This document shows positions 1 to 16,966 of a stretch of 17,248 nt of DNA, piece by piece; within the stretch, counting starts at the first letter, position 1; each line of letters begins with the position of its first letter. Both the position numbers and the translations under genes were made by a program. The notes beneath the pieces were generated by a model, which ran no database searches, was not told the origin of the DNA, and worked only from the letters and a program-made list of their open reading frames with translations. The stretch lies in the IMG/VR virus record IMGVR_UViG_2645727991_000020; one strand, written 5' to 3'. The stretch comes from a virus (lineage: Duplodnaviria > Heunggongvirae > Uroviricota > Caudoviricetes).

Positions 1-633
1 GGCGCACCAATCCCGTGGCCATCAGATACCGTTCCGTCTGGTTATGCCCTGATGCAGGGGCAGACTTTTGACAAATCTGCTTACCCGAAACTTGCAGCCG
101 CTTATCCGTCAGGCGTGATCCCTGATATGCGTGGCTGGACGATTAAGGGCAAACCCGCCAGTGGTCGAGCCATATTGTCTCAGGAACAGGACGGCATTAA
201 ATCGCACACCCACAGCGCCAGCGCATCCAGTACGGATTTGGGGACGAAAACCACATCGTCGTTTGATTACGGCACTAAATCCACGAATAACACCGGGGCG
301 CATACCCATAGTGTTAGCGGTACGGCTGCTTCAGCCGGTGCACATACCCATTCGATGACATTTGTTTCAGGTGGTTCCAGTGGTGCTCCGGGAAGTGGAG
401 CATCTGATTATTCTAAATACAGTGTTAACACTTCTTCTGCAGGCGCTCATACGCACTCTGTATCGGGTACTGCTGCAAGCGCAGGTGCACACGCACATAC
501 TGTCGGTATTGGTGCTCATACGCACTCGGTTGCGATTGGCTCACATGGACACACCATCACCGTTAACGCTGCTGGTAACGCGGAAAACACCGTCAAAAAC
601 ATCGCATTTAACTATATTGTGAGGCTTGCATAA
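1..633 (+). CDS. stf: phage side tail fibre protein, C-terminal portion (5' end lies outside the window)
   Basis: Frame 1 is open from base 1 ([21 protein letters not shown]...) to TAA at 631-633, so the gene starts upstream of the window. Repeated GAHTHS / GAHAHT / GSHGHT His-box motifs match the HxH repeats of T4 gp37 / lambda Stf-type receptor-binding tips. Stop overlaps the tfa start (TAATG). Confidence 0.85.
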
Positions 634-1217
634 TGGCATTCAGAATGAGTGAACAACCACGGACCATAAAAATTTATAATCTGCTGGCCGGAACTAATGA
701 ATTTATTGGTGAAGGTGACGCATATATTCCGCCTCATACAGGTCTGCCAGCAAACAGTACCGATATTGCACCGCCAGATATTCCGGCAGGCTTCGTGGCT
801 GTTTTCAACAGTGATGAGGCATCGTGGCATCTCGTTGAAGATCATCGGGGAAAAACCGTCTATGACGTGGCTTCCGGCGACGCGTTATTTATTTCTGAAC
901 TCGGTCCGTTACCGGAAAATGTTACCTGGTTATCGCCGGAAGGGGAGTTTCAGAAGTGGAACGGCACAGCCTGGGTGAAGGATACGGAAGCAGAAAAACT
1001 GTTCCGGATCCGGGAGGCGGAAGAAACAAAAAACAGCCTGATGCAGGTAGCCAGTGAGCATATAGCGCCACTTCAGGATGCTGTAGATCTGGAGATCGCA
1101 ACGGAGGAAGAAACCTCATTGCTGGAAGCCTGGAAAAAATATCGGGTGTTGCTGAACCGTGTTAATACAACAACTGCACCGGATATTGAATGGCCAACAG
1201 TACCCATTATCGAATAG
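633..1217 (+). CDS. tfa: tail fibre assembly protein (lambda Tfa family), 194 aa
   Basis: Protein [51 protein letters not shown]... is near-identical over its length to the lambda/TfaQ-type Tfa sequence as I remember it. The 194-aa length and position immediately after stf with TAATG coupling fit. Confidence 0.9.
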
Positions 1218-1290
1218 TGCATTACGAACTGCAGGATATTATATGGGATAATATTCTGCAGTTTATTGGGGCTGTATTTTAAAAAGGTGT

Positions 1291-2622
1291 TTATTTTGAG
1301 TGAATTATCACCTTGTTTTTTCCGGTTCTTTTGGCTTGATATAACGCTTTATCGGCATTGACTAACATTTCAGATGGGCTGAGATTATTCTCTTTTGAAG
1401 TAAAGCAACCAATGCTGACAGTTATTTTCTCAGGTCCATGCGATAATAATTTTTCCGAGCATTGCTCTTCAATGTTTTTTCTGATTCGCTCTGCAATTGA
1501 TAGCAAGAGCTTTTGAGTATTACCTTTAATGATAATACCGAACTCCTCACCGCCTAAGCGCCCTAATACATCCTCTTTCCTGATGGATTTTTTTATTATT
1601 CTGGTAACCATTACTATGACTTGATCACCCATATGATGCCCCCATTTGTCATTGATGCTTTTGAAACTGTCAATATCTAACATTATTACTGAGAAATCAT
1701 GGTGTTTTGATATATTCTTCAATGAGTCAATAAAGTATCTTCTATTGTATGTATTCGTTAGTGGATCATGAATTGCCATATGATTAGCATGATTTAATTT
1801 CCTGAAAACATAATACATGAGTGTTGAAATGATATAAATCATTGATATCAATTCAAGAAATTTTGTCATGTACCATGCAGGATGGGATTTATCAATAAAA
1901 TACAATAAAATTAGATTATTGCATACTGACACTATACTAATAAGTATTATACACAACCATATTTTTGAGTAATTACGTATGCTGATGCATGAGCTGATAA
2001 GTAATACAAGCCAAAATACTGATATTATTTTGGTATACACGATATTCCACGTCGGCAAATGACGATTCAGCGAGTATTGTATAATATTAAGGCTATATTT
2101 TATATTGTCACTGCTTAGATTTTTTGCTACAAACGGAGTAATAAAAAGAATTAATATTGACAAAACAACAATTATTATGTTTCTTTTATCTTCTAAAACA
2201 CTTTTATTTTTAACATTGGTGGAATAAACAGCCAGAAAGATTATAGATATAAAGCTGAACTGACGGAATAGATAATATATTGCGATATCATTTGATTTCT
2301 GATAGATTGTAGATAAATCGTTACCTAACGGAGATAAAGAAATAATAGCCACTTCTAATAAATAATACGTGTTGCTCAAAAACGCGAATGAAAGAATTAA
2401 GAGATAACTTTGTCTCTGATTAGAAACATAGTAAAGCAATAGAAAAATAAAAATCATCAGGTTTATGAAAAAAAGCCCAATAATGAAAATACTATAACTT
2501 ATTTGTGTTGTTTGTGTTATGTATATTCCATTATTTTCATGCAGTAACAAAAATATAATAGAGATGCATGAAAATAAAAAGATGAAGATTTTTATTTTTA
2601 TAGGTACCTGGTTGATAATCAT
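1291..2622 (-). CDS. membrane-anchored GGDEF-domain diguanylate cyclase with a multi-pass N-terminal domain
   Basis: 443-aa ORF. The C-terminal ~170 aa carry the GGDEF signature (RLGGEEFGI) with an RxxD I-site (RKED) shortly upstream. The N-terminal ~270 aa are strongly hydrophobic, consistent with about 6-8 transmembrane helices. The gene is visibly far more AT-rich than its flanks (GC not computed), so a long open frame here is unlikely by chance. Possibly related to prophage-borne DGCs such as DgcX of enteroaggregative E. coli, but I cannot confirm that from memory. Confidence 0.85.
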   Translation of the reverse strand: MIINQVPIKIKIFIFLFSCISIIFLLLHENNGIYITQTTQISYSIFIIGLFFINLMIFIFLLLYYVSNQRQSYLLILSFAFLSNTYYLLEVAIISLSPLGNDLSTIYQKSNDIAIYYLFRQFSFISIIFLAVYSTNVKNKSVLEDKRNIIIVVLSILILFITPFVAKNLSSDNIKYSLNIIQYSLNRHLPTWNIVYTKIISVFWLVLLISSCISIRNYSKIWLCIILISIVSVCNNLILLYFIDKSHPAWYMTKFLELISMIYIISTLMYYVFRKLNHANHMAIHDPLTNTYNRRYFIDSLKNISKHHDFSVIMLDIDSFKSINDKWGHHMGDQVIVMVTRIIKKSIRKEDVLGRLGGEEFGIIIKGNTQKLLLSIAERIRKNIEEQCSEKLLSHGPEKITVSIGCFTSKENNLSPSEMLVNADKALYQAKRTGKNKVIIHSK

Positions 2623-2872
2623 GTACGCACCTGAGAATGATATATATATAATATGTATCGCTACAAATAACGATAATTTCTTACTGGTGATAGTATACTA
2701 TTATTCTGGTTAATCGCTGTCAAATTGATGATTTTGGTTAGTATTGCAATAGCGAAGAGTTTGATCCGGTAAGACTGGCTAGGCAAGGCTATACCAAAAA
2801 ATCAGTGTAGGTTCAGAAAACGATGCACCATACAATCATCAATAATTTCAAATTGTCCATTGTGCATAAATC

Positions 2873-2915
2873 ATAAAGAAAACCGCAGCACGTCGTATGC
2901 AAGAACGTGCTGCGG
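2873..2915 (-). terminator. putative rho-independent terminator (minus strand)
   Basis: Perfect 11-bp inverted repeat ccgcagcacgt / acgtgctgcgg (2883-2893 / 2905-2915) with an 11-nt loop. On the minus strand it is followed by TTTTCTTT (plus 2873-2880). Confidence 0.45.
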
Positions 2916-3156
2916 TTGGCTGGTGAACTTCCGATAGTGCGGGTGTTGAATGATTTCCAGCTGCTACCGATTTTACATATTTTTGCCTGAGAGGATTTGA
3001 ACCGCCTCCACAGACTCTACATCACAGATAACCACTGTCACGAGGACTGTTAGTGCTGTGAGTTCAACGGGGCGATGTACGCTACCTTTAATCAAGAGGG
3101 AGAGGTACGTTGCTAAGATGAGTTTATATTCATCAACTAAGTGCAGATCAGCGAAT

Positions 3157-3200
3157 AACTAAAACTTGGCTGTCTGTGACAGGAACATCGATTGACAGCC
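3157..3200 (-). terminator. possible terminator hairpin downstream of the 1,182-aa gene
   Basis: Inverted repeat ggctgtc (3168-3174) / gacagcc (3194-3200) about 30 bp past the stop codon, followed on the minus strand by a weak U-rich tract (AAGUUUUAGUU). Weaker than the 2883-2915 hairpin. Confidence 0.3.
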
Positions 3201-3226
3201 AGTTTCTCCACATTTAGGTGTTTAGA

Positions 3227-6200
3227 TTAATCATCCTCTCCAATATTTAGATTGCTGATAACCTGTGCAGCTTCGTGGTCATAGCCAACCGCTAAATCTC
3301 TTAAGGTAACGGCGAATCGCTGAAAACCAGCGTTTTCCACTTCTTCTGCTTTTGCCCGGAACTGGTCAGCTAGCTCTCTCTCAGGTTTTCCTGTTGGATC
3401 AACACAATAAACACCTCGTGAGTTGTAGGCTCCTGTCATGTAGCCCCTGCGCATACTCTCAGCATCTCGATCGTTGAGAGCAGCTGCGACCTCTCGGTTT
3501 ATCCACAAGCCATTCGGATCGGAGGGAGTATAAATCAAGACTTCACCAACTTTGCTGAGTGCAACGTCCAGGTGACCTGATGCCGTAGAACCCTCCTTAA
3601 CTTTCTGAAGCCATTCAGTAAAGCGTTCTCCGTTGAACGTCCCATTTGATTGGCTTCCTGGCGGTGTCTTCCAGTTGTACAAAAGAGTCCAGGCATTTTT
3701 TGCGATTGCTTTCAATTCATCTGTTGGTTCACTTGTCATATTGTCTTCTTTGTCAGAACGATAAATGAGTTGGATTACTTCGCAGAAAAATTCTGGATCA
3801 TTAGCCATTTTATTCTCAAGGAACTTAGGCACAGCATCTTGGTGACCATCGAGCAATGGAAGGTAAGCCCACTCGATCTGAAAAAGATTATCCGGATTCA
3901 CTTTGGGATCAGTCTGAAGAAATTGGATAAGGGTAGTTATGTTGTAACCATCCATGTTGGAGCTAGATTCGTTAGTTGAAGTGGCAGCAAGCAAAGCGCG
4001 GATACACTGTTCAGTATCGATTGGCTGCTTTGTCTGATGCATCCTGCACAGGCAATTGATTGCCGCAAGTGGTCTGCCATGATCAATCAGCTTATCGATG
4101 GCACTAGTAAGATCACCTTCACCCAGGTCAGGATTTGCATCGGTGCGAGCCCAATATTCGTTCTCGGAAGCTTGAGGATAATGAGAGACTCGGGTCCAGG
4201 TCTCCTTGTTAAAAGGCAGATAAGCAAAGAATTGGCCTAACTGTTCAGGAGTCCAGTCAGCTTTATCCAGATTGTCGAACCACTCCCAGCCTTTGAGATA
4301 GAAACGCTTCCAAATAAAAGCGCTTACCAATGCCTTATACTTATTTTCTTTTGTATTGAGGAAACGGGGCAAAAGAAGTTTTTCGAACACATCATCGTTG
4401 ATAGTGCCGAGTACACTTCCTATTTGATGGGGCGCAGAAACGTGATCTGCAAATCGAATAACGCCTTCTGCGCCATCTTGCCTAAGAATTTCTGATATTG
4501 CGGATTCGCGCCTTGATTCGAGTTTATTTCTCCGTTCTTCCCAATCGCCATTTTCTAAGTAAAGATCAAAATCTCGATTTGAAAAAAGGTGCTGATATAA
4601 GTTGAATGGATTGGTAGGTGCCAGTTGCTCGGCAACATTTTCGATTTTGGTCAGCAGATCATCAGGTAAAGCCCAATTAGCATTAGAGAATCGCCGATGT
4701 TTATTTGCGAATCGATGAAGATGATCCCAAATTACAACTCGCTGCTCTTCATTAAGACAATTAATTGTTTCCGAAGAGAGGTGCTTAAGAAGATGTTCGA
4801 AAGCAGGAGATGGAAGGCTATCAAAATTATCAATCAACAAGGTAAGGCGTTCGATATCTTCTCCAGCGTTTTTGACGGCAAGCTCAGCATAAAAAGATGT
4901 CTGCAACCAGTAATCCTGATTAGTCACTTTGCTTTCCCAATCATCTGGGATTATTCGGCGCCAAGAGGGCTTGTGTGACCCAGAAGAGGTTTGATGGTGA
5001 CCGGGTAGAAGCTGGACGAGTAAATTCCAGGCAATGTCAGGCCATTCCTGCAAGATGACGTTGACTGCAACTTTTCGTTTTTCTATAGATGCCAGCGTTT
5101 GCGGAAACCACGGTAATAATATAGTAGTAAGCGAGTTAGATGGTCGATTAGCCCACTTGCCCCCAGGATCGTGGCTGGCAAGTTCGGCCAGTACAACACA
5201 GACGCGTACTAGGTATTGCTCATCCCAGGCTAATTCTTCTAGAGCCCATAGCAGTCCTGTCAGATAATTACCACCAGTGATACCATTTACTTCTTGAGAA
5301 AAAAGCTCATCAAATACACAAGGAGTCTGACGCATTGCCTTCTCAACTGCATCAAGAAATTTTGCAGGAGCTGCTTCAGCCAAAGTTGGTAGCAAACCGT
5401 TTAGGCTACCCCATAAAACCCAGTTTGCATCAGTCAAAATTGTATGTATTGCGACGTTAACGGAAGTTTCAGCATTCCCCTGAGAGCAGTTAACGCAAAC
5501 CTCTGGCCGACTCCCGATTATGGCTAAACCCTCTGCTATACCTTGTCGCAGCGTGGATGAAAACTTCAGCACCTTACCATGAATACTAGCAGCGTAACGC
5601 TCTTCAGCAGGTAATTCGAAAGCAGGGTCTGGCTCTTTGAGTACGGAAATCGCGGAAGACTTAAACAATTCAAGATTCTGATCAAAAATGCGGGATCCAA
5701 GAAGACTCCATAGCTCCATTCGATTTGTTACTTTCCAAATGCCGTTTTTTAGGGACAAAGGACTGTCTGGGCTATGTAAAATCTCTCGAGCCTTCCTTAG
5801 CCATTCGTCATAGCTGATACCAAGCAATTGGGTTAGTACATTTCGGTCACACTCATTTTTATCATTCCATTGCCCAATCAACACTGCTAAGGCTAAATAA
5901 GAGGCATCTGGGTGGTGAGTCCAGTCGGTTTTGACTACCGGTTGTACTAACCTCAACTTCTCAGGTATTTCAGCAATAACCCTTTGTTTGAAAACATCTA
6001 AAAGATCTTCAGGTAGCTTACTTGAAATGATAGTGCCAGCATCTTTATTCCAAGTTTGTACGATATCAACTATCCGCGACCAAACCCACTGAGGATACTG
6101 TTGATGGAATTGCGCTATGTGGGAGTGCAGCAAAGAAAGGACGACGCCTGATTCATTACCCAGATCGTACCCTAGTAAATGGAAATGGTTCAAAAAGTCA

Positions 6201-6775
6201 TAAAGCTCATCGTTTGTTAAATCGTTCCCACTGTTTGCCATCTTCAGATGAAACTGGATGGTCTCCAGTTTCTCAGTACTTTTAGGCGGGCTGAACTTGG
6301 CTTTTTGAACGTTCCTCAAAAATTCATCGACTGTTTTTGTGTGTCTAGCCTGATTCAATAACCAGAGCACATTGTGTGTATCGGTCGAACTGAGCGGACC
6401 GGTGATCAGTGCAATAACATCCTTGTTCTTGGTAAACAAGTCAGGATTGTTGAAATCGTTCCAAGCAGCCTGTATAACTTCCCCAAGTATCGCATTACCT
6501 TGCGTAAATGAAATAGAATGCTTTATTTGTCCTAATAGCTTCCGTTTTTCATTTCTGTTGAAATCTTTAACAACGACGATCAAGTCGTCGGTATCAAAAC
6601 CATCAATCTTGCCCTGGAGATTTATCTCCACTATGGGCCAACAAGGAAGACAAGGTGCATTACCGCCTGTTAGCATTAGAGCAACAAAAGACGCTTGGAC
6701 ATGTGCTTCAAAATGAACACCGCCTCCGCCTGTAGAAAAAGGATTACTCAAATTTTTTTTATTTGTCATTAACAA
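3227..6775 (-). CDS. large hypothetical protein (~1,180 aa), function unknown; candidate phage-defence or effector cargo
   Basis: Uninterrupted 3.5-kb ORF. The track start at 6775 is TTG; the first ATG is at 6769 (MTNKKNLSNPF...). Stop TAA at 3227-3229. I found no Walker A GxxxxGK[ST] and no other catalytic signature I can name. The N-terminus has a Gly-rich loop (STGGGGVHFEAH), a CxxC (CLPC) and an acidic-hydrophobic strand (GFDTDDLIVVVKD); a second CxxC (CVNC) lies near residue 430; the remainder is Trp/Leu-rich and probably helical. Product is unassigned. Confidence 0.85.
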   Translation of the reverse strand: MLMTNKKNLSNPFSTGGGGVHFEAHVQASFVALMLTGGNAPCLPCWPIVEINLQGKIDGFDTDDLIVVVKDFNRNEKRKLLGQIKHSISFTQGNAILGEVIQAAWNDFNNPDLFTKNKDVIALITGPLSSTDTHNVLWLLNQARHTKTVDEFLRNVQKAKFSPPKSTEKLETIQFHLKMANSGNDLTNDELYDFLNHFHLLGYDLGNESGVVLSLLHSHIAQFHQQYPQWVWSRIVDIVQTWNKDAGTIISSKLPEDLLDVFKQRVIAEIPEKLRLVQPVVKTDWTHHPDASYLALAVLIGQWNDKNECDRNVLTQLLGISYDEWLRKAREILHSPDSPLSLKNGIWKVTNRMELWSLLGSRIFDQNLELFKSSAISVLKEPDPAFELPAEERYAASIHGKVLKFSSTLRQGIAEGLAIIGSRPEVCVNCSQGNAETSVNVAIHTILTDANWVLWGSLNGLLPTLAEAAPAKFLDAVEKAMRQTPCVFDELFSQEVNGITGGNYLTGLLWALEELAWDEQYLVRVCVVLAELASHDPGGKWANRPSNSLTTILLPWFPQTLASIEKRKVAVNVILQEWPDIAWNLLVQLLPGHHQTSSGSHKPSWRRIIPDDWESKVTNQDYWLQTSFYAELAVKNAGEDIERLTLLIDNFDSLPSPAFEHLLKHLSSETINCLNEEQRVVIWDHLHRFANKHRRFSNANWALPDDLLTKIENVAEQLAPTNPFNLYQHLFSNRDFDLYLENGDWEERRNKLESRRESAISEILRQDGAEGVIRFADHVSAPHQIGSVLGTINDDVFEKLLLPRFLNTKENKYKALVSAFIWKRFYLKGWEWFDNLDKADWTPEQLGQFFAYLPFNKETWTRVSHYPQASENEYWARTDANPDLGEGDLTSAIDKLIDHGRPLAAINCLCRMHQTKQPIDTEQCIRALLAATSTNESSSNMDGYNITTLIQFLQTDPKVNPDNLFQIEWAYLPLLDGHQDAVPKFLENKMANDPEFFCEVIQLIYRSDKEDNMTSEPTDELKAIAKNAWTLLYNWKTPPGSQSNGTFNGERFTEWLQKVKEGSTASGHLDVALSKVGEVLIYTPSDPNGLWINREVAAALNDRDAESMRRGYMTGAYNSRGVYCVDPTGKPERELADQFRAKAEEVENAGFQRFAVTLRDLAVGYDHEAAQVISNLNIGEDD

Positions 6776-6914
6776 TCACATCCACATTTTGATTACGAAT
6801 AGATGAAAAAGAAGAGCACTCATACTTCAGAACTTATTCCACCTATATCTTTTAAAGACACTGTTATGCCTAGCATTTACGTAGATTAGCTAGCTCTCGG
6901 GTAATGACTCCAAC

Positions 6915-7418
6915 TTACTGATAGTGTTTTATGTTCAGATAATGCCCGATGACCTTGTCATGCAACTCCACCGATTTTGAGAACGACAGTGACTTCCGTC
7001 CCAGCCTTGCCAGATGTTGTCTCAGATTCAGATTATGTCGCTCAATGCGCTGCGTATATCGCTTGCTGATAACGTGCAGCTTTCCCTTCAGGCGTGATTC
7101 ATACAGCGGCCAGCCATCCGTCATCCATACCACGACCTCAAAGGCCGACAGCAGGCTCAGAAGACGCTCCAGTGTGGCCAGAGTGCGTTCACCGAAGACG
7201 TGCGCCACAACCGTCCTCCGTATCCTGTCATACGCGTAAAACAGCCAGCGCTGACGTGATTTAGCACCGACGTAGCCCCACTGTTCGTCCATTTCAGCGC
7301 AGACAATCACATCACTGCCCGGTTGTATGCGCGAGGTTACCGACTGCGGCCTGAGTTTTTTAAGTGACGTAAAACCGTGTTGAGGCCAACGCCCATAATG
7401 CGTGCACTGGCGCGACAT
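6915..7418 (-). CDS. insB: IS1 transposase InsB (expressed natively as an InsAB' frameshift fusion)
   Basis: 167-aa product ...[58 protein letters not shown]... matches IS1 InsB with a few substitutions. It overlaps the 3' end of insA as expected for programmed -1 frameshifting. Confidence 0.9.
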
Positions 7419-7612
7419 CCGACGCCATTCATGGCCATATCAATGATTTTCTGGTGCGTACCGGGCTGAGAGGCGGTGTAAGTGAACTGTAGTTGCCATG
7501 TTTTACGGCAATGAGAGCAGAGATAGCGCTGATGTCCGGCAGTGCTTTTGCCGTTACGCACCACGCCTTCAGTAGCGGAGCAGGAAGGACATCTGATGGA
7601 AATGGAAGCCAC
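7337..7612 (-). CDS. insA: IS1 protein InsA (zinc-finger DNA-binding regulator)
   Basis: 91-aa product [68 protein letters not shown]... matches IS1 InsA. Confidence 0.9.
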
Positions 7613-7667
7613 GCAAGCACCTTAAAATCACCATCATACACTAAATCAGTAAGTTGGCAGCATTACC

Positions 7668-9283
7668 AAATCATCAATAACGAAAGCTGGTTATGTTCTC
7701 CGTTAAGCGTTATCGGTACTGGCAGAGACGATAAAGACCAGTATCTCATTCTTCGCTGGCTGTCGTTTGGTTCTGAAACGCCGACAACCGCTGCCATTCC
7801 ACTGGCTGATATTGGTGAACGTGAAGGATGGCGCACACTTAAAGCTGGTGGGGTAAATGTCACGACCAAAAGCAGCCTCAGAGCAATACTGGCAGACTGG
7901 CTACAACGCAGTGGCTCTCGTGAATTGTGGCGTGTTGCTCATGCCACTGGCTGGCAATGCGGAGCGTACATCATGCCTGATGGGGAAATCATCGGAACAC
8001 CTGAAAATCCTGTGCTGTTCAGCGGGAGAAGCTCAGCCGCAGCCGGATATACCGTCTCAGGGAGCGCGAAAAGCTGGCGTGATAACGTGGCGCGTCTGGC
8101 CTTTGGTAACTATTCAATGATGACCGGGATCGGCGCAGCACTGGCAGCGCCATTGATTGGGCTGGTGGGCGCTGACGGGTTCGGCATTCATTTCTATGAG
8201 CAGTCGAGCGCAGGTAAGACCACCACGGCAAACGTGGCGAGCAGCTTATACGGCAACCCTGATTTACTGCGGCTGACGTGGTACGGAACCGCGCTGGGGC
8301 TGGCAAATGAGGCCGCCGCCCACAATGACGGACTAATGCCGCTTGATGAAGTTGGTCAGGGCGCTGATCCTGTCAGCGTTTCACAGTCTGCCTATGCGTT
8401 ATTTAACGGTGTAGGGAAACTGCAAGGCGCTAAAGATGGTGGAAACCGGGATCTAAAACGCTGGCGTACAGTGGCAATCAGCACCGGAGAAATGGATTTA
8501 GAAACATTTATCGCTACTTCCGGGCGAAAAACCAAAGCCGGGCAACTGGTGCGACTGCTGAATATTCCGTTGAGTAAAGCAGTACGCTTTCACGATTACC
8601 AGAACGGAAAACAGCACGCAGACGCACTGAAAGACGCTTACCAGCATCACCACGGCGCAGCCGGGCGTGAGTGGATTAAATGGCTGGCAGACCACCAGCA
8701 ACAGGCTATTAAAACCGTTCGTGATTGCGAAAGCAGATGGAGAAACCTGATCCCATCCGATTATGGTGAGCAGGTTCACCGTGTAGCCGCGCGATTTGCC
8801 ATTCTGGAGGCCGCATTGCTGTTAGGCGAGGTTGTAACAGGCTGGGATGCTCAGACATGCCGTGATGCGATACAGCACAGCTATAACGCATGGTTGCGCG
8901 AGTTCGGCACAGGTAACAAAGAACATCAGCAGATTATTGAACAAACGGAGGCATTTCTTAATGCCTATGGGCTTAGCCGTTTTGCACCATTTCCATACAG
9001 CCCGGCAGATTTGCCCATCAAAGATTTAGCCGGATACCGTCAGCGTGGAGAACATGACGAAAGCCCAATGATTTTCTACACATTCCCGGCCACATTTGAA
9101 AAGGAGATCGCATGTGGTTTCAACGCAAAACAGTTTGCTGAAGTGTTGAAAAAAGCCGGGATGCTAACCCCACCAAACAGCGGTCGTGGATACCAAAGAA
9201 AATCACCACGTATTCAGGGACGACAAATAAACGTTTATGTACTCAATTACCAGCCAGGAGATTATAACTCATCTGAAGAATGA
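7668..9283 (+). CDS. P-loop NTPase replication protein of mobile-element type (tentatively DUF927 family), 5'-truncated by IS1; probable pseudogene
   Basis: The track ORF 7493..9283 begins inside IS1. Native sequence starts at the IS1 boundary (7668) with no in-frame ATG until 7973 (IMPDGEIIG), yet the intervening 100 codons read as genuine protein. Walker A-like YEQSSAGKTTT and Walker B-like GLMPLDEVGQ are present. The gene ends about 20 bp before iteron cluster A. Confidence 0.6.
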
Positions 9284-9301
9284 GCTTCTTCATGTGCGTA
9301 G

Positions 9302-9422
9302 AAAAGGTGTTGGTTCAGTTGGTTCAGTTGGTTCAATTTATAAAGGGTATTGTTTTATAAGGATTTTATTCTTTTTATTGAACCAACACTGAACCAACAA
9401 CACGGTATTTTGAACCAACACA
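9302..9422. repeat. iteron cluster A (origin-like)
   Basis: Three tandem 9-bp repeats ttggttcag / ttggttcag / ttggttcaa (about 9310-9336), an AT-rich spacer of roughly 40 bp, then three inverted copies tgaaccaaca (9379-9420). Confidence 0.7.
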
Positions 9423-9469
9423 ATGTGACTGAATTGATGCGCACAACACCTGGCTGGCATCAGAGAGTG

Positions 9470-9546
9470 TTTTACGAGACTTTCGTAAAATCCTGTGTAC
9501 AAGGGCGTGACGTTTTTGAAAGTGAGCACTACGAAATTTTCGTAGT
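9470..9546. promoter_or_regulatory. pair of TACGA-N5-TCGTA palindromes (candidate operator sites)
   Basis: ttttacgaGACTTtcgtaaaa (9470-9490) and actacgaaATTTtcgtagt (9528-9546) share identical half-sites TACGA / TCGTA with 5-bp spacers, centres about 57 bp apart. Confidence 0.4.
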
Positions 9547-9737
9547 TCAAAAAACAGCCTCTGAGAAGTTGTTATGCCTGTTCAGCAAACCATCCGCATA
9601 GCTGATCGCGAATCAAATTACCAATGGAGCCAGAAGCAAGGGCAGAACTGAAAAGCGCCTGCCGTGAAGAGTAATGCGACACCATAAATATAGTTTTTAG
9701 AGTCCATAAAAAACCTGTCAAAACCTGACACACAGAA

Positions 9738-9773
9738 CGACGCCACCAGCTACTGAGCGGTGGCATTTTTTTG
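9738..9773 (+). terminator. putative rho-independent terminator (plus strand)
   Basis: GC-rich stem gccacc (9742-9747) / ggtggc (9759-9764) followed by a run of seven T (9766-9772). It sits between the iteron/operator region and the downstream operon. Confidence 0.45.
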
Positions 9774-9867
9774 TGCTATTTGTTTCATATTCTGCAATTA
9801 CGATGATGAATATTGCGATTTGTGAAACTATAATAACTGTTGTTTTATACAGTTATAAGGGGGCGTT

Positions 9868-10029
9868 ATGGCTATTTCAGTAAAGCCGGTATTGATAAGT
9901 GAGAAGCAAATGGAAGCGATAAAGAAAATTCAGGAAGAGCAGCGTAAAAAATCAGGAATTGGAGTAGCGCCAACTCTGCATGAAATTGCACGAGGGTTAA
10001 TAGATAAGGCGCTGGCAGGCTGTATGTGA
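9868..10029 (+). CDS. small hypothetical protein (53 aa), possibly a ribbon-helix-helix-like DNA-binding protein
   Basis: Not in the supplied track (below its length cut-off). ATG at 9868 with a strong Shine-Dalgarno AAGGGGG 6 nt upstream; product MAISVKPVLISEKQMEAIKKIQEEQRKKSGIGVAPTLHEIARGLIDKALAGCM; TGA at 10027-10029. It sits 16 bp upstream of the four-gene operon. The RHH assignment is a guess from the strand-then-helix pattern. Confidence 0.45.
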   Translation: MAISVKPVLISEKQMEAIKKIQEEQRKKSGIGVAPTLHEIARGLIDKALAGCM

Positions 10030-10045
10030 AAATGGATGGCATCGC

Positions 10046-10507
10046 ATGGAACTAAAATTTATTGATAACCCTGTGCGATTACAGGCCTTTCTTAACGAGC
10101 CAGGCAATACCGAAAATATTGTTGAGCCGGGGCACACGTACTACATCAAGCCTGATGCGGTATATCTCGGCATCTACGAAGGATTAGTGCTGGCTGGCGT
10201 TCATGAAGTGCGTAACTTCTGGCATAGCGTTGTTGAATGCCATGCGGTGTACGACCCCGGATTCCGTGGTGAATATGCACTGCAAGGGCATCGATTATTC
10301 TGCAAATGGCTTCTCGAAAACTCACCATTCCTTAACAGCATCACTATGGTTCCTGACACCACGAAATATGGACGGGCAATTATCCGTTTGCTTGGCGCTA
10401 CCCGTGTTGGTCACCTTGATGATGCTTATATCAGATGTGGTAAACCCGTCGGCGTAACGCTTTATCAGTTAACTCGGCAACAATATAAGGAATTCAGCGA
10501 ATGTTAA
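10046..10507 (+). CDS. hypothetical protein (153 aa), first gene of a translationally coupled operon
   Basis: ATG at 10046; its stop (TAA 10505-10507) overlaps the next start (ATGTTAA). No motif recognised. Confidence 0.7.
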   Translation: MELKFIDNPVRLQAFLNEPGNTENIVEPGHTYYIKPDAVYLGIYEGLVLAGVHEVRNFWHSVVECHAVYDPGFRGEYALQGHRLFCKWLLENSPFLNSITMVPDTTKYGRAIIRLLGATRVGHLDDAYIRCGKPVGVTLYQLTRQQYKEFSEC

Positions 10508-11178
10508 TTACCCATATAGCTCATAAACATCTCAATCGTGCCGTATACGAAAAAGGCGGTGATGGTGGTGCCTCTAAAGCTCAGGCGAAGGCCCAGCAGC
10601 AGGCAATTGATTTGCAGCGCGAGCAGTGGAATACGGTGATGAATAATCTCAAGCCGTATGCAGAAGTCGGATTGCCTGCTTTACAACAACTGCAAGGACT
10701 GATGACTCTGGAAGGGCAGAATAAAGCCGCGAATGATTTCTTTGGTTCTGGTTTATATAAAACACAGGCAGATCAGGCCCGTTATCAGAACCTTGTCTCA
10801 GCAGAAGCTACCGGGGGGCTTGGCTCAACAGCTACCAGTAACCAGTTATCTTCCATTGCGCCCATGCTTTATAACAATTGGCTCAGTGGGCAAATGCAAA
10901 ATTATGGAAACCTGCTAAATGTCGGGATGAATGCGGCATCAGGGCAGGCAACAGCAGGGCAAAACTACGCCAATAATACCGGGCAACTCTTGCAGGGGCT
11001 TGGCGCTATTCGTGCAGGTCAGGCGCAGCAGCCATCCAGTCTTGCGCGTGGTATTGGTGGGGCGGCATCAGGCGCTTTAGCGGGTGCGCAACTTGGTTCC
11101 GTTGTTCCGGGTATAGGTAATGTCGCCGGGGCTATTGGTGGTGGGCTTATTGGTCTTGTTGGGGGGCTTGGATTCTAA
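10501..11178 (+). CDS. hypothetical protein (225 aa) with Gly-rich hydrophobic C-terminus; possible virion ejection/injection protein (P22 gp7-like by size and position)
   Basis: Start overlaps the upstream stop; C-terminus GIGGAASGALAGAQLGSVVPGIGNVAGAIGGGLIGLVGGLGF is membrane-active-like; Gln/Ala-rich low-complexity middle. The homology call is inference only. Confidence 0.7.
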   Translation: MLITHIAHKHLNRAVYEKGGDGGASKAQAKAQQQAIDLQREQWNTVMNNLKPYAEVGLPALQQLQGLMTLEGQNKAANDFFGSGLYKTQADQARYQNLVSAEATGGLGSTATSNQLSSIAPMLYNNWLSGQMQNYGNLLNVGMNAASGQATAGQNYANNTGQLLQGLGAIRAGQAQQPSSLARGIGGAASGALAGAQLGSVVPGIGNVAGAIGGGLIGLVGGLGF

Positions 11179-12599
11179 TGGCGACATGGCAACTTGGCGG
11201 GCTGCCTAGCATGGCACCGCAAAATGATAATGCTCCTCGTTCTTCCGTTCCTCAGCCTGTGCAGTATCAGCAGCACCCAAACGTAGGTTTAATGGCGCTA
11301 CAGGGGCTAAGAGGCGTTGCTGAGATTAATCAGCAGGCACGTCAACAACAGCGTAAAGCAGAGTTTCAGAAAGCATATGCCGGGGCTTTTGAGTCTGGAG
11401 ACAGAAACAAAATGCGCAGTCTTATTTCTGAGTATCCAGAAGAATTTGAAAGCGTTCAGAAAGGGATGGGCTTTATTGATGACGACCAGAGAAATTCTAT
11501 TGGTCATCTTGCGACTAGTGCTCAAATCGCATCTTCGCTCGGAACTGGGGCATTTGGAAAATTCATAGCAGATAACGAAGATGAAATGCGTCGCTTGGGA
11601 ATTTCTCCTGAGTCTGTTGCCGAAATGCATGTTAATGATCCACAGGGATTCCAGCGGCTTGCTGGTAGTATGGCACTGTTTTCTCTCGGTCATGAGAAGT
11701 ATTTCGATATCAAAGATCAAATGGAAGGTCGGGATATTGAGCGTGGCAAGTTGGCAGAGACAATCCGCAGCAATCAGGCTGGCGAAGCACTTCAGGCGAG
11801 AGGGCAGGATATTAGCCGAGCAAATGCGTTAACGTCAGCATATGCACCAACAGCAGCAATGCAGAATTACAATCAGTACGCTCAAATGTTAAAGGCGGAT
11901 CCAGAGGGGGCGGCGGCATTTGCGGCAGCGGCTGGAATTAATACAAACGCCAAAAAATTAATGAGTGTTAGAGAAAACGATGATGGCACTGTCACAAAAT
12001 ACTACACAGACGGAAGTGAAGAGCAGGGAAAACTAAACCAGCCAATATCTGGAGATGGGTTTCGTCCAATAGCTTTGCCAACAGCCCAAAAGATCATGGA
12101 AAAGTCGCCAGAAGGGGCTAAAAAAGCTGCTGGATTTGCATACAGGGTTAGGGATGCTCTTGATTCAATAGATACACTGAAAGACCAGCTTAGCCCACAG
12201 CGAGTGGCGATCATTAATAATGCTTTGGGTAATGGGACGCTGGCTAACTTAACGCTCAGCCCAACAGAGCAGCAATACGTTGTTAATGCTAATGACGCAA
12301 TAATGGCAATACTCCGTCAGGAAACAGGGGCAGCTATCGCACCTGCTGAAATGTCAAAATATTATCAAATGTATTTCCCTCAGCCTGGCGACTCCACAAA
12401 AACCATTGATACCAAGCGCCGGAAGATGGAAAACCAGTTCAATTCGCTGAAAGCTGCTTCTGGTCGAGCTTATGATGCTTTGCGGGTTATTTCAGCAGTT
12501 GACAGAGGAACTTCTTCTTCGTCGCAGACATTGCCGCAATCTGAGCAGGTATCACAGCCAGCAGCCAGCAGTAACTTTTCTTCACTATGGGGTGATTAA
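11178..12599 (+). CDS. hypothetical protein (473 aa); possible virion ejection protein (P22 gp20-like by size and position)
   Basis: TAATG overlap with the upstream gene; hydrophilic, Ala/Gln/Glu-rich. The size matches my recollection of gp20 at about 471 aa. Inference only. Confidence 0.7.
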   Translation: MATWQLGGLPSMAPQNDNAPRSSVPQPVQYQQHPNVGLMALQGLRGVAEINQQARQQQRKAEFQKAYAGAFESGDRNKMRSLISEYPEEFESVQKGMGFIDDDQRNSIGHLATSAQIASSLGTGAFGKFIADNEDEMRRLGISPESVAEMHVNDPQGFQRLAGSMALFSLGHEKYFDIKDQMEGRDIERGKLAETIRSNQAGEALQARGQDISRANALTSAYAPTAAMQNYNQYAQMLKADPEGAAAFAAAAGINTNAKKLMSVRENDDGTVTKYYTDGSEEQGKLNQPISGDGFRPIALPTAQKIMEKSPEGAKKAAGFAYRVRDALDSIDTLKDQLSPQRVAIINNALGNGTLANLTLSPTEQQYVVNANDAIMAILRQETGAAIAPAEMSKYYQMYFPQPGDSTKTIDTKRRKMENQFNSLKAASGRAYDALRVISAVDRGTSSSSQTLPQSEQVSQPAASSNFSSLWGD

Positions 12600-14704
12600 T
12601 GGCTAAAGCATGGAAAGATGTTATCGCCTCTCCACAGTATCAGGCGTTAGCACCAGAACAAAAAGCGCAGGCTCAGGAGCAATACTTCAATGAAGTCGTT
12701 GCCCCGCAAGCCGGAGAAAGTGTAGAGCAGGCTAAGCAGGCTTTTTATGCTGCCTATCCACTACCATCAACGAATGAAATAGACCGATCCCAATCAGCAA
12801 CTCAAAATATTCAACATACATCATCTGATAATTCTCTTGCGTCAGGGTATGCAAAGTTAGCTACTCAGCAAAGAGAGGGGCTTGAGCGTTCAGCAGAACA
12901 GGGAGCCAGTCTTGGGGCTGCGATGCGCGATGCTATAACAGGCGAAAGCCGAATGACTCCAGAGATGGAGAGACTGCAAAATGTCACCTCTGCCCCAGAA
13001 TTGAACTCACTAAGCATGGATGCCCTAAAGGCTGGATGGTCTCAACTTTTCGGCTCTGACGCGTCTCAGGAAAAGATTCTTCAGGGAATGGGGGCGACAT
13101 TAAGGCAGGATGAGAAGGGGAATACTATCGTTTCTCTGCCATCAGGTGATTATGCCCTGAACAAGCCGGGTTTATCACCGCAAGACCTGACTTCGTTTCT
13201 TGCTAATGCGTTGGCGTTTACACCAGTGGGCAGGGCTGGAACGGTGCTTGGTGCCATAGGAAAATCAGCAGCTACAGATTTAGCACTACAGGGAGCCACC
13301 AGCCTTGCTGGTGGAGAAGATATTGATCCGTTACAAACGGTAATTTCTGCTGGCATTGGTGGTATTGGTAAGGGGCTGGAAAATACAGCGAGTGCGGTTT
13401 CGAGGGCTGTTCGTGGTGATATGTCGCCTGAAGCAAAGGCTGCTGTCGACTTTGCATCGGAAAGAAATCTGCCGTTAATGACCAGTGACATGCTGAAAGA
13501 TAAAACCTTTATGCAGAGTCAGGCTCAGACATTAGGCGAAAGAGTTCCTTTTTTTGGAACCGGTAAGAATCGGCTGAATCAACAACAAGCACGAGAAAAT
13601 TTAGTCAGAACATTTAGCGATGGTCTGGGTGGCATTTCTGATAAACAGCTTTATGAATCTGCGACTAAAGGGCAACAAAAATTCATTGAGGCAGCAGGAA
13701 AGCGATATAACCGCATAATTGACGCTATGGGGGATACCCCTGTCGATCTCTCAAACACGGTAAAAGCTATCGACAATCAGATTGCCGTGTTAAGCCGCCC
13801 GGGCAAATCTCAGGATAGAGCCGCGGTAAAAGTCTTGCAGCAATTTAAAGACGATATCACCAGCGGACCAAATGACCTGCGTCTGGCGAGGGAAAACAGA
13901 ACCGATCTTCGAAAGCGATTTATGGCGTCATCTGACACTGTTGATAAAGATACGCTCCAGAAAGCCAGCGATATTATCTACAAGGCATATACGGCGGATA
14001 TGAAAAAAGCCGTAGCCAAAAATCTTGGAGCAGACGAAGCCATTAATATGGCAAGGGTTGATCGCTCATGGTCTAAATTCAATGATATGATGGGAAGAAC
14101 GCGCGTTCAAAAGGCAATAGCCAGCGGCAAGGCCACGCCTGAGGATGTAACAAAACTCGTTTTTAGCCAAAGCCCATCAGAACGTTCTCAGCTTTACAGG
14201 CTTCTGGATGACAATGGTAGGCAAAACGCACGAGCAGCCATAGTTCAGAATGCTGTAGATAAGGCGACTGATCCGTCTGGAAATATCAGTGTTGAGAAGT
14301 TTATTAATGCGTTACACCGGAACAGGAAGCAATCAGCAACTTTCTTTAAAGGCGTACATGGAAAGGAACTGGACGGCGTTATTAAATACCTCAACGATAC
14401 AAGACACGCGGCAAAAGCGAACGTTCAAAACTTAAATGGTCAGCAGCTTTATGGATTGTTAGTTGGTGGTGGCATCATAAACGCAGCAGTATTAGCGGGG
14501 ATGCTAAAAACGGCTGCGTTTGTTGTTCCTGCTGCTGGTGCCGTAGGCGGAGCAGCGAAGGCATACGAAAGCCCTGTTATACGAAATGCCTTGTTACGTC
14601 TGGCAAATACGCCAAAAGGTAGCACAGCATATGACAGAGCGATCAGTACGGTCACACAATCGCTCACCAGAGTCGCACAGGCATCACAAAAAGAAGCTCA
14701 ATAA
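12599..14704 (+). CDS. hypothetical protein (701 aa) with C-terminal hydrophobic segment; possible virion ejection protein (P22 gp16-like by position)
   Basis: TAATG overlap with the upstream gene; a hydrophobic stretch LYGLLVGGGIINAAVLAGMLKTAAFVVPAAGAVGGAA lies near the C-terminus; stop TAA at 14702-14704 is followed by a hairpin and T-run. Confidence 0.7.
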   Translation: MAKAWKDVIASPQYQALAPEQKAQAQEQYFNEVVAPQAGESVEQAKQAFYAAYPLPSTNEIDRSQSATQNIQHTSSDNSLASGYAKLATQQREGLERSAEQGASLGAAMRDAITGESRMTPEMERLQNVTSAPELNSLSMDALKAGWSQLFGSDASQEKILQGMGATLRQDEKGNTIVSLPSGDYALNKPGLSPQDLTSFLANALAFTPVGRAGTVLGAIGKSAATDLALQGATSLAGGEDIDPLQTVISAGIGGIGKGLENTASAVSRAVRGDMSPEAKAAVDFASERNLPLMTSDMLKDKTFMQSQAQTLGERVPFFGTGKNRLNQQQARENLVRTFSDGLGGISDKQLYESATKGQQKFIEAAGKRYNRIIDAMGDTPVDLSNTVKAIDNQIAVLSRPGKSQDRAAVKVLQQFKDDITSGPNDLRLARENRTDLRKRFMASSDTVDKDTLQKASDIIYKAYTADMKKAVAKNLGADEAINMARVDRSWSKFNDMMGRTRVQKAIASGKATPEDVTKLVFSQSPSERSQLYRLLDDNGRQNARAAIVQNAVDKATDPSGNISVEKFINALHRNRKQSATFFKGVHGKELDGVIKYLNDTRHAAKANVQNLNGQQLYGLLVGGGIINAAVLAGMLKTAAFVVPAAGAVGGAAKAYESPVIRNALLRLANTPKGSTAYDRAISTVTQSLTRVAQASQKEAQ

Positions 14705-14708
14705 CTGG

Positions 14709-14731
14709 TTAGCCATGGATGGCTAATTTTT
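14709..14731. terminator. putative terminator shared by the convergent operon and membrane-protein gene
   Basis: Palindrome ttagccat-gg-atggctaa (14709-14726) followed by TTTTT (14727-14731), directly after the stop of the 701-aa gene and overlapping the stop of the minus-strand gene. Confidence 0.4.
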
Positions 14732-15142
14732 GTTCTTTGCTCTCATCCATAGGTAAAGAAGGGAAAGAACAAGACAAAAAACAGAGAATAGATAACCTAC
14801 CTCATATGGTGCGCCAAAAAAATTAGCTATTGATACGGGCAAAAAAGCTGAGGCGATCAAAATTGAAAGGCAAAAAATAAGCCCAGTAATATAGTTTATT
14901 AAATTCTTAAATGAGAAACGTTTTGCTTGATTTACGGTCTTAACGAACGATCGCTTAACGACGGATAAAAGCAAATAGATGGCGACAGTTGCTAATGCCC
15001 CTTTCCACCAGTCTGGATATAGTTTTGCGACAATCAGACCAAGGAAAACCATGATGACAGCCTGAGCATTCACACCAACCCTCCCTTTAGCTTTGTTTAG
15101 AATGGCAATCATCATATATCCAAGACATGGCATTTGGTACAT
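14723..15142 (-). CDS. small integral membrane protein (about 115-139 aa); candidate superinfection-exclusion-type moron
   Basis: Three to four hydrophobic helices (VIMVFLGLIVAKL, ATVAIYLLLSVV, ITGLIFCLSILIASAFL, LFSVFCLVLSLLYLW). The likelier start is an in-frame GTG at 15073, preceded by AGGGAGG, rather than the track ATG at 15142. Convergent with the operon. Confidence 0.6.
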   Translation of the reverse strand: MYQMPCLGYMMIAILNKAKGRVGVNAQAVIMVFLGLIVAKLYPDWWKGALATVAIYLLLSVVKRSFVKTVNQAKRFSFKNLINYITGLIFCLSILIASAFLPVSIANFFGAPYEVGYLFSVFCLVLSLLYLWMRAKNKN

Positions 15143-16106
15143 AGCTTGGGTCGGGATTTCAAATCCGATCCCCGTTGATGGGGCCGTTACAGTACGCGCA
15201 TATCCGCTTTATGTGAAACAGGAAGATTTTTCTGATATCACTGCCACAGCAAAACACCAATTTCGAGACAAGTACGCGCGCGAGGGGTATCAGTTGCAAA
15301 AAATTTTGCAACTACGTCCGACCAGTATGCACACGATGGCGGAGGGATACCATAAAACTGTTCTCTACATGAGACAGAGTGGTGGTGATGTGTTGATTAT
15401 CGGCGTATATGCGCACAGGACGCGCTATGACGATGTTTTATGCGGGTACACCAATCACATGTATCTGGTGTGATAAATCGCGTTACATGACCTCTCATGT
15501 TGTACTGGTGGTTATCACGACGTTCTGAATCTGGCCTTTGCCTGGTATTTTGCGACAAGTACGCGCGCGTAGCATCGAAATAATCGGATGGCGTATGCTG
15601 CTGGTAATATGAAGACCGATAGCATTAACCGTAAGGAGAAAGACTTCTCGATAACGGCAAGGGGGCTGAATTGCGAGGCGAGATTAAGCAACTGTCTTGA
15701 ACGTAAAAATCATGGAGCAACATGATGGTACGATTCATTCCATTCTTCGTTCTTTCTGAGCATTGCGTTCAGGCTTAGTCAAAATTAGTGTTGCGAGCGG
15801 ACCTATTAGTAATTGTTGGTGCGATGCGTCTGTTATGGATTGTTATGGTTGTGGCAGGCCTGATTAATATCCAGTATGACCACCAGCTATGAGAGGCCAC
15901 CTCAGTGGTTCGCAGTTGCAGGTTTGCACTCAGGTTCGCAGGGTTTTGGCTACTTTCACGTGCGAACCTGCAGAATTGCAAAGGACAACTAAGTCCTCTG
16001 GCCAACTCCCGGTTTATGAGCGACACAGTCCGCCTGGCGCATCGTTTTCGTCGAGTGCGCCCATCAGCTTGTCCATGGACTATCCACCACTCGATATTAA
16101 AGCTAA

Positions 16107-16292
16107 TCATTGGTTGCCAGCCCGCGAATCAAGTTTGTTCTGGATCCAAGCTTCAACCTCCTCAAGCGACCATCTAGCTGATCTACCAATTTTAACTGGC
16201 TGTGGAAACGTGCCCGTCTTAACCCATGAGTAGATTGCCGTTTTCTTGAAGCCCGTTCTGAGCATGACTTCGCTTAATTTGATAAGGCGCAT
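16107..16292 (-). CDS. alpA: AlpA-family phage regulatory protein (MerR-like DNA-binding / excisionase-type)
   Basis: 61-aa product MRLIKLSEVMLRTGFKKTAIYSWVKTGTFPQPVKIGRSARWSLEEVEAWIQNKL has the AlpA helix-turn-helix signature. A strong SD (GAGGAG) lies upstream of the ATG at 16292. Confidence 0.85.
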   Translation of the reverse strand: MRLIKLSEVMLRTGFKKTAIYSWVKTGTFPQPVKIGRSARWSLEEVEAWIQNKLDSRAGNQ

Positions 16293-16341
16293 AGAGGCTC
16301 CTCTGCTTTAGATTAAGCATAGTGACAATCTGGCTTTGGGT

Positions 16342-16376
16342 GGTATCCAAAAGCGAGGTATCCATGTTGGTATCCA
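16342..16376. promoter_or_regulatory. three direct GGTATCCA repeats in the alpA upstream / divergent promoter region
   Basis: GGTATCCA at 16342-16349, 16357-16364 and 16369-16376 (spacing 15 and 12 bp), 50-85 bp upstream of the alpA start. A second direct pair TTCACGCA lies near 16455-16475. Confidence 0.35.
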
Positions 16377-16543
16377 CCAAAACGCTGTTTACCAAAAAGT
16401 TACCACCGGAACAGGACATTTTGAGCTGTAACTTAACACATAGCATATGGAGTTCACGCATAGACTTCACGCACAACGGCTCTGGCCAGTGAAGAATCAC
16501 CCTGGCTAGCAATATAATGCCGATCACCATCAGAGGGGAATCC

Positions 16544-16735: not shown

Positions 16736-16807
16736 GCAGCACCTAACCAGCACTAGACAAGCCCTGTGCTGGTGGATGTCCCTCATAATTAGCGGTTTTT
16801 AAACGGC

Positions 16808-16936: not shown

Positions 16937-16966
16937 TTGCTTATCTATATAATCTGAGAGGCAGAA

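Follow-up and report, generated by a model that had tools for sequence, protein, structure and literature searches.

The closest described system is the diguanylate cyclase DgcX of Escherichia coli. Richter et al. (2014) named O104:H4, EAEC 55989, ETEC E24377A and ETEC H10407 as carriers of dgcX, and described a protein whose A-site and I-site are both intact and whose N-terminal domain, some 270 aa long, has eight transmembrane helices resembling those of YcdT and YeaI (PMC4287979). In that work the gene invariably adjoins lambdoid prophage DNA, and its hitch-hiking by specialised transduction was proposed. It also showed the highest expression among the E. coli cyclase genes, with a strongly expressed lacZ fusion and use of both the RpoD and the RpoS RNA polymerase (PMC4287979). 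Another account in the literature places DgcX outside any mobile element. A 2023 study classed the protein as MASE4-GGDEF and found that its overexpression leads to csgD-independent cellulose production; this effect is lost in the GGEAF and GGAAF mutants (residues E359 and E360), while deletion of dgcX in strain Fec101 caused only a minor change in colony biofilm morphology (PMC10459773). For the O104:H4 strain of the 2011 outbreak, DgcX has been proposed as a contributing factor in its strong adherence and curli phenotype.

Two proteins of K-12 share this architecture. DgcT (YcdT), encoded on the chromosome beside pgaABCD, has the MASE4 and GGDEF domains, an intact GGEEF motif and a sub-genomic GC content (0.386). 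It differs from DgcX in sequence (38% identity), in belonging to the core genome, in not being phage-borne and in its reportedly very weak expression (PMC4287979). CdgI (YeaI) has the same MASE4-GGDEF architecture and 39% identity to DgcX, but it has no GG[DE]EF A-site and is annotated as a c-di-GMP binding protein. As to the habitat of the gene, the moron concept goes back to comparisons of HK97 and HK022, with the lambda b region, lom and bor as points of reference.

We analysed a stretch of viral DNA of 17,248 nucleotides (IMGVR_UViG_2645727991_000020), hereafter the window. A preliminary description, made by reading the letters, had reported a membrane-bound GGDEF diguanylate cyclase carried as prophage cargo at 1291-2622. 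These coordinates are exact and correspond to an ORF of 443 aa on the minus strand. The features considered here are the following.

1 to 633, plus strand: 3' part of a side tail-fibre gene of lambdoid type, truncated at the window edge (Pfam Phage_fiber and Collar)
633 to 1217, plus strand: tail-fibre assembly gene, tfa (Caudo_TAP, PF02413, E-value 1.6e-43)
about 1218 to about 2878, no strand: AT-rich dgcX moron cassette of 1.66 kb, GC 0.306 (alignment with VTB97432v and E24377A)
1229 to 1262, no strand: hairpin with a 17-bp stem, in the gap where the tail-fibre assembly gene and dgcX converge (folding)
1291 to 2622, minus strand: dgcX, 443-aa MASE4-GGDEF diguanylate cyclase (ORF with an ATG start; Pfam domains)
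1312 to 1776, minus strand: region coding for the GGDEF domain, aa 283-437 (Pfam match, alignment with PleD, structure superposition)
1540 to 1554, minus strand: codons of the A-site GGEEF, aa 357-361 (motif scan)
1570 to 1581, minus strand: codons of the I-site RKED, aa 348-351 (motif scan; aligned to PleD R359-D362)
1801 to 2505, minus strand: region coding for the MASE4 membrane domain, aa 40-274 (Pfam match, AlphaFold model)
2628 to 2632, minus strand: Shine-Dalgarno-like AGGTG, 5-6 nt ahead of the dgcX ATG (direct reading of the sequence)
2695 to 2723, minus strand: sigma-70-like promoter candidate, TTGACA, 17 nt, TAGTAT (10 of 12 consensus matches; a prediction only)
2879 to 2984, no strand: conserved phage-backbone element (genome counts, phage alignments)
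3227 to 6769, minus strand: orphan gene of 1,180 aa, a separate cargo (distribution; no database match)
6900 to 7667, minus strand: IS1, 768 bp (Pfam DDE_Tnp_IS1)

Over all 443 residues, the encoded protein shares 98.4% identity with DgcX from the O104:H4 strain 2009EL-2071; the seven substitutions are conservative and none of them falls at a catalytic position. Identity reaches 99.3% with DgcX of E24377A, again over all 443 residues, and 99.8% with the copy of strain 2018-11-3CC. Judged by its sequence, the ORF is dgcX, a gene already known, and its detection here is a rediscovery: the preliminary description agrees nearly point for point with that of Richter et al. 2014 (PMC4287979). The known DgcX (O104:H4, 55989, E24377A) is the same in length (443 aa), in its MASE4-GGDEF architecture, in its GGEEF and RxxD motifs and in its position beside tfa in a lambdoid prophage. 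The right-hand neighbour differs, being attR and ybhB in the known copies whereas the window copy has a rare 1,180-aa cargo gene and IS1.

The domain content was established with profile searches. The Pfam model MASE4 (PF17158) matches with an E-value of 6e-36 (124 bits for a cut-off of 28.4) over 234 of its 239 positions, and GGDEF (PF00990) with an E-value of 3e-44 (151 bits for a cut-off of 23.8), in agreement with the NCBIfam model TIGR00254 (162 bits for a cut-off of 37.4). The polytopic N-terminus of about 270 aa, noticed earlier and left there as either MASE-type or novel, thus corresponds to MASE4 (aa 40-274) and not to a novel domain. In the AlphaFold model (mean pLDDT of 76, built on 12 family members), eight transmembrane helices lie within residues 8-284, the last of which continues as an extended linker to the GGDEF domain. 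The GGDEF part superposes at about 2.1 Å on the solved GGDEF domains of DosC and SadC, and the search for a solved structural counterpart of the MASE4 part gave none that was convincing.

Both motifs of the GGDEF domain are intact, as had been claimed: GGEEF occupies residues 357-361, and RKED, the RxxD I-site, residues 348-351, five residues N-terminal to it. In the phmmer alignment with PleD, the positions D316, N324, D333, E359, E360 and K431 of DgcX correspond to D327, N335, D344, E370, E371 and K442 of PleD, and R446 is conservatively replaced by K435. With this one exchange, the metal, guanine and phosphate contact positions of PleD are kept. The closer alignment therefore leaves the catalytic site intact, and supports the prediction of an active-type GGDEF cyclase. 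A protein of this architecture might also be a degenerate, inactive receptor of c-di-GMP, as CdgI, 39% identical to DgcX, would suggest, and the intact I-site makes c-di-GMP binding by DgcX likely. However, the GGEEF motif and the contact positions are kept in DgcX while CdgI is devoid of GG[DE]EF, and A-site mutants lose the cellulose phenotype (PMC10459773). We therefore regard an inactive receptor as extremely improbable.

The preliminary description had estimated by eye that the gene is far more AT-rich than its surroundings, and the GC content computed along the window bears this out. The GC of dgcX is 0.298 (GC3 of 0.315), against 0.514 for the tail-fibre gene, 0.482 for the tail-fibre assembly gene and 0.438 for the 1,180-aa gene. 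Ten other non-overlapping segments of 1,332 nt have a mean GC of 0.465 (sd 0.030), which gives dgcX a z-score of -5.6, and the stretch of minimum GC of the entire 17 kb falls within the gene. The resulting island measures 1.66 kb at about 30% GC, compared with about 47% for the remainder of the window. For a gene of 30% GC, silencing by H-NS would be expected. This expectation fits awkwardly with the high expression published for dgcX.

The borders of the island coincide with those of a cassette. On the left, its edge is the tfa stop codon, and the gap between the end of tfa and the stop codon of dgcX is 73 nt. On the right, the alignment with E24377A and with VTB97432v, in which an identical backbone is found with the cassette missing, sets the edge directly before the conserved backbone hairpin. 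The tail-fibre gene that is cut by the window edge runs on to 1,115 aa at the related loci (L013-L019).

Using megablast, we found dgcX in 771 of 5,426 complete E. coli genomes (14%, about one in seven), mostly with at least 99% identity; this count includes three plasmid-borne copies. With probes spanning the junctions, 766 of these 771 carriers were found to have the one between the tail-fibre assembly gene and the cassette, and 691 the one between the cassette and the hairpin, genomes at 80-95% nucleotide identity being counted in these totals. In the 766 genomes, the left border of the cassette lies 0-3 nt past the tfa stop codon; the other five carriers are without this junction. The gene gave no match in the plasmids of PLSDB, and neither dgcX nor any other MASE4-GGDEF gene was present in the 50,697 deposited phage genomes searched at the DNA and protein levels.

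The position of dgcX relative to the attachment site could be read in two other genomes. In E24377A, the gene has a degraded lambdoid prophage on one side and ybhB-bioA on the other, which places it in the lambda attB region, and the order is tfa, dgcX, the hairpin, a sib/tI-like hairpin, the lambda P arm, the exact core GCTTTTTTATACTAA, attB' and ybhB. The P-arm stretch is 89% identical to the attP region of lambda, arm-type Int sites included. In O104:H4 2009EL-2071, two exact att cores lie 44.6 kb apart around a nearly complete lambdoid prophage (int, xis ... J, lom, stf, tfa, dgcX) located between ybhC and ybhB. In both genomes, the att core separates dgcX from ybhB, and the phage P arm and sib are on the dgcX side. 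In the free phage HK97, the order is tfa, hairpin, sib, att core (attP) and int, with no insert. Since dgcX is on the phage side of attR and the corresponding gap is empty in HK97, the gene is a moron in the position of the lambda b region, and is physically part of the prophage. No lambda att core was found within the window, so the location inside attR rests on these other genomes.

In the prophages at lambda attB, dgcX is thus a moron inside an att-bounded prophage and not flanking chromosomal DNA, which gives precision to its earlier description as prophage cargo. This refines the views of the literature, in which the gene is either a hitch-hiker of specialised transduction or outside any mobile element. 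The first of these views, that dgcX is chromosomal DNA beside prophages and is spread by specialised transduction, has in its favour the published interpretation itself and the occurrence of the gene at several chromosomal sites, each time beside lambdoid DNA. In transducing structures of the lambda-bio type, captured DNA lies on the opposite side of the att site. A capture of this kind would thus sit across the att site from where dgcX is, whereas in E24377A and O104:H4 the gene is on the phage side of attR and the hairpin, sib/tI and the P arm intervene before the core. The precise left border in 766 of 771 genomes also speaks against it, as does the failure to find a copy free of phage DNA among the loci examined, so that the objection of a chromosomal orthologue, foreseen in the preliminary description, is not borne out. 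For the present-day arrangement, specialised transduction of a chromosomal neighbour is already contradicted and we consider it quite improbable, although an original capture from a chromosome may have taken place in the past.

Like the morons of other lambdoid phages, dgcX is an extra unit of deviant composition, set between elements that adjoin each other in a related phage (tfa and attP of HK97). A candidate promoter region, a hairpin and, according to the literature, expression from the prophage may add to the likeness. The gene differs from those morons in its product, a second-messenger synthase and not a surface or exclusion protein, and in being carried by none of the deposited isolated phages. 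Because no deposited phage genome carries dgcX, its packaging by a viable phage is not supported. The carrier prophages inspected are damaged and contain pseudogenes: the large terminase gene is frameshifted in that of O104:H4 2009EL-2071, and that of E24377A is only a remnant with an IS66 insertion.

Two hairpins frame the gene. The one at 1229-1262 has a folding energy of -24.8 kcal/mol on the plus strand (z-score of -5.7) and is followed by UUUAUU; it is likely a terminator, judging from its fold and tail. The other, at 2883-2915 within the backbone element, has a 14-bp stem and a folding energy of -25 to -30 kcal/mol, and lies just upstream of the dgcX promoter region. On the minus strand it is followed by UUUUCUUUAU. 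The backbone hairpin element occurs in about 3,300 genomes, and also in HK97, HK106 and phi80, between tfa and attP, and in the Rac prophage of K-12. The hairpin is phage backbone and not cassette, its U-rich tail being supplied by the cassette edge. It resembles a terminator that would stop leftward transcription before the promoter region of dgcX, in keeping with the earlier suggestion that it insulates the promoter from read-through. A terminator scanner run over 1100-3300 returned none, both hairpins being outside its loop or tail rules. No Rfam RNA element was found in or around dgcX, and the number of promoter-like sites in the region of the gene is not above chance.

To the right of the backbone element, the 1,180-aa protein (given as 1,182 aa in the preliminary description) has no match in Pfam, NCBIfam, PADLOC or PDB. 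An N-terminal nuclease of the PD-(D/E)xK or DUF4297-like type was considered and rejected: it has no Pfam support at E <= 10, and the AlphaFold model is unconfident in this part. The neighbour belongs to a large, unannotated and highly conserved family, with members in the defence islands and mobile islands of different phyla. We judge this family more interesting than dgcX itself.

In the window, the two genes are neighbours with a common orientation, and a draft genome (L016) has them in the same tandem. This arrangement could be taken for a two-gene unit, for example with an effector controlled by c-di-GMP. Their distributions contradict such a unit: dgcX is present in 771 complete E. coli genomes, but only 7 have the 1,180-aa gene. 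The best seven matches of the latter, presumably in those same genomes, show no cyclase at the site, and in VTB97432v, which was inspected in full, the 1,180-aa gene directly follows the tail-fibre assembly gene and dgcX is missing. Five other taxa have the 1,180-aa gene with no cyclase as a neighbour. Moreover, the terminator-like hairpin and the dgcX promoter region lie between the two genes, and their GC contents are dissimilar (0.298 vs. 0.438). A functional pair is therefore highly implausible. Each of the two genes occupies the one cargo slot independently of the other, and the earlier impression that they had been acquired separately holds.

The insertion point of IS1, beyond the 1,180-aa gene, is shared with two other loci (L016 and L002), from which the right-hand flank differs. 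The island to the right of IS1 encodes P22-type ejection proteins and a TOPRIM/DUF927 protein, and in other genomes it is located elsewhere. A shared insertion point with a right flank that sits elsewhere indicates an IS1-mediated rearrangement, which has linked the end of the prophage, through IS1, with an unrelated island. Any single complete E. coli genome covers at most 76% of the left 6.9 kb, and at most about 58% of the whole window.

Finally, we looked at more distant relatives. Full-length relatives of DgcX were found only in Escherichia and Citrobacter, and five diverged ones (82-52% identity) are also at the right ends of lambdoid prophages. The contexts itemised here are those of the 82, 67, 53 and 52% relatives; an 85% allele is outside the context set. 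The 82% allele belongs to a prophage located elsewhere in the chromosome, where it comes immediately after the tail-fibre assembly gene. The 53% homologue, from E. albertii, is one gene past the tail-fibre assembly gene. The 52% homologue is part of an insert of 2.4 kb that lies at the Rac attR (ttcC), on its prophage side, and is flanked by a 195-bp direct duplication. The 67% homologue (P0010, locus L007) lies between ybcH and a 3' integrase remnant with argU, i.e. at a DLP12-type att site. Its locus has 73% nucleotide identity to positions 1221-2634 of the window, a match that takes in the gene and its 3' tail as far as the left edge of the cassette, spans the stretch of the 1229-1262 hairpin and excludes the promoter region. 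Both homologue genes measured (67% and 52%) have about 30% GC.

With its gene order nfrB, nfrA, ybcH, the homologue and folD, the L007 locus was considered as an ancestral chromosomal copy, and rejected on account of the integrase remnant and the tRNA-Arg gene argU directly downstream. The same abutment argues against chromosomal DNA hitch-hiking beside prophages.

The DgcX subfamily (99-52% identity) may be a phage-only MASE4 lineage, which would occupy the slot between tail fibre and attP at a number of att sites, among them lambda attB, argU and the Rac site in ttcA, and would be selected for a benefit to the prophage. We put this forward tentatively, as a possibility that is on balance rather unlikely. 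Whether the cyclase mainly serves the prophage is a related matter. It might act as a shield against superinfection, through matrix and lower motility, or might change c-di-GMP-dependent phage receptors. Every copy of the DgcX subfamily examined is phage cargo, in a slot that also houses other accessory genes. Infection by phage N4 is known from the literature to need c-di-GMP via DgcJ, and therefore cyclase levels can alter phage susceptibility. On the other hand, no PADLOC model matches DgcX and its published phenotypes concern only the biofilm matrix, so that we consider a main role in the service of the prophage unlikely.

The reading that we retain is that dgcX is a horizontally acquired inner-membrane cyclase, carried as a prophage moron and adding to the c-di-GMP output of its host, to which we assign a probability of about 0.9. 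The MASE4 domain, with its eight helices, would sense a putative membrane or periplasmic cue, and the long helix links it to the cytoplasmic GGDEF domain. GGDEF domains would dimerise and condense two GTP into c-di-GMP, with the RxxD I-site probably mediating feedback inhibition by the product. The gene would move as a self-contained AT-rich cassette of 1.66 kb, with its predicted promoter region and its 3' hairpin. This cassette sits antisense between tfa, the last tail gene, and the hairpin-sib-attP backbone, in what corresponds to the non-essential b region of lambda. Lysogeny would then add a cyclase, strongly expressed according to the literature, to the c-di-GMP network of the host. The added activity may push the cell towards matrix production, with cellulose in some strains and CsgD and curli in others. 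Of this account, our own results cover the architecture of the protein, its catalytic residues and identity, the borders of the cassette, its place inside attR and its distribution. The high expression and the GGEEF-dependent phenotypes come from the literature, and we infer the position of the promoter, the role of both hairpins as terminators and any benefit to the phage.

Spotting dgcX in a genome is a useful annotation and not a discovery. The increments made here are modest: carriage by 14% of the genomes, a defined moron slot, and diverged relatives in the same habitat. If the phage-only lineage were true, dgcX would not be a one-off uptake of a host biofilm gene, and the benefit could be, for example, retention of lysogens in the biofilm or protection against superinfection via c-di-GMP-driven surface changes. 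Taken together, the increments listed above make it a reasonable question whether temperate phages use c-di-GMP for their own benefit.

The following features accompany the diguanylate cyclase gene dgcX in the window:

976-1174, + strand: match to the Rfam family IS009 (RF02111), 225 bits
2879-2984: conserved element, about 100 nt long, that contains a hairpin
3227-6769, - strand: gene of the 1,180-aa neighbour
6900-7667: IS1, joining the prophage end to an island
7668-17248: island to the right of IS1

The IS009 match lies wholly within the coding sequence of the tail-fibre assembly gene, and this Rfam family looks like one built on a conserved segment of that gene rather than an independent RNA gene. 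The junction between the tail-fibre assembly gene and dgcX is missing in five of the carrier genomes in the ecoli_genomes collection. In the same collection, 3 of the 776 places where dgcX was found are on records classed as plasmids; a search of PLSDB gave no match to dgcX.

The island to the right of IS1 carries genes for a TOPRIM/DUF927 protein, for a PerC-like regulator and for homologues of gp7, gp20 and gp16, the ejection proteins of P22. Where it occurs in other genomes, this island occupies an unrelated locus, for example at 4.2 Mb in strain 042, and the arrangement of the window (prophage end, IS1, island) was absent from every complete E. coli genome in the collection. Either IS1 mediated a rearrangement here, or the window comes from a lineage that has not yet been sampled.

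In prophages and loci that carry dgcX or its relatives, the following regions are of concern:

L021 (O104:H4 prophage carrying dgcX), 29831-30913: porin gene annotated ompC
L007 (locus of the homologue with 67% identity), 1571-9335: region of the DgcX-like cyclase
L010 (Rac-type locus), 7028-9629: region of the insert with the DgcX homologue of 52% identity
L031 (E. albertii prophage), 6533-7336: gene whose product has a metallo-beta-lactamase fold and matches the Pfam family Anti-Pycsar Apyc1 only faintly

The ompC-annotated porin gene, flanked by the Q antiterminator on one side and by the lysis genes on the other, is a second moron within the O104:H4 prophage. In L007, nfrB, nfrA and ybcH are directly followed by the DgcX-like cyclase gene, all on one strand, and nfrB carries an MshEN domain, which binds c-di-GMP. 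It has been reported that c-di-GMP produced by DgcJ is needed for infection by phage N4. The adjacency observed in L007 is probably a mere consequence of the argU att site. In the Rac-type locus, the homologue lies in an insert of 2.4 kb. Around this insert, 195 bp of the Rac right-end sequence, extending 15 nt into ttcC (attR), are present as a direct duplication; such a structure suggests a tandem integration followed by a deletion. In the E. albertii prophage, the gene with the metallo-beta-lactamase fold has the tail-fibre assembly gene on one side and the DgcX-like gene on the other; it could encode an anti-defence cyclic-nucleotide phosphodiesterase beside a cyclic-dinucleotide synthase.

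The 1,180-aa neighbour is a member of a large orphan family. No match was found in Pfam, NCBIfam or PADLOC, nor any sequence match in the PDB, and its sole family match is phrog_18693, a family of unknown function. Its relatives form 6665 clusters at 50% identity. The closest 120 share 68-100% identity with it, differ little in length (about 1,180 aa) and come from E. coli, Pectobacterium, Vibrio, Acidithiobacillus, Chlorobium and one Planctomycetes metagenome-assembled genome. The C-terminal part (about 890 aa) is predicted to fold as a HEAT-like alpha-solenoid, and in many relatives the N-terminal part (about 280 aa) is substituted by other N-termini. Genes of this family stand alone in defence or mobile islands, their neighbours being, depending on the island, type I-F CRISPR-Cas, GmrSD with SIR2, type I R-M, CcdAB with ArdC and a reverse transcriptase, or integrases. 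The gene is a candidate single-gene defence element or selfish element.

The hairpin-containing element also occurs in:

L022 (phage HK97), about 2501-2600
L029 (K-12 Rac), 6728-6769

It was detected in about 3300 of the 5426 E. coli genomes, and in many lambdoid prophages it marks the right end, with tail-fibre genes on one side and attP or attR on the other. The cargo directly to its left or right varies (dgcX, the 1,180-aa gene or a serine acetyltransferase gene). As such varied cargo is inserted immediately beside it, the hairpin element may serve as a border between modules or as a hot spot for recombination.
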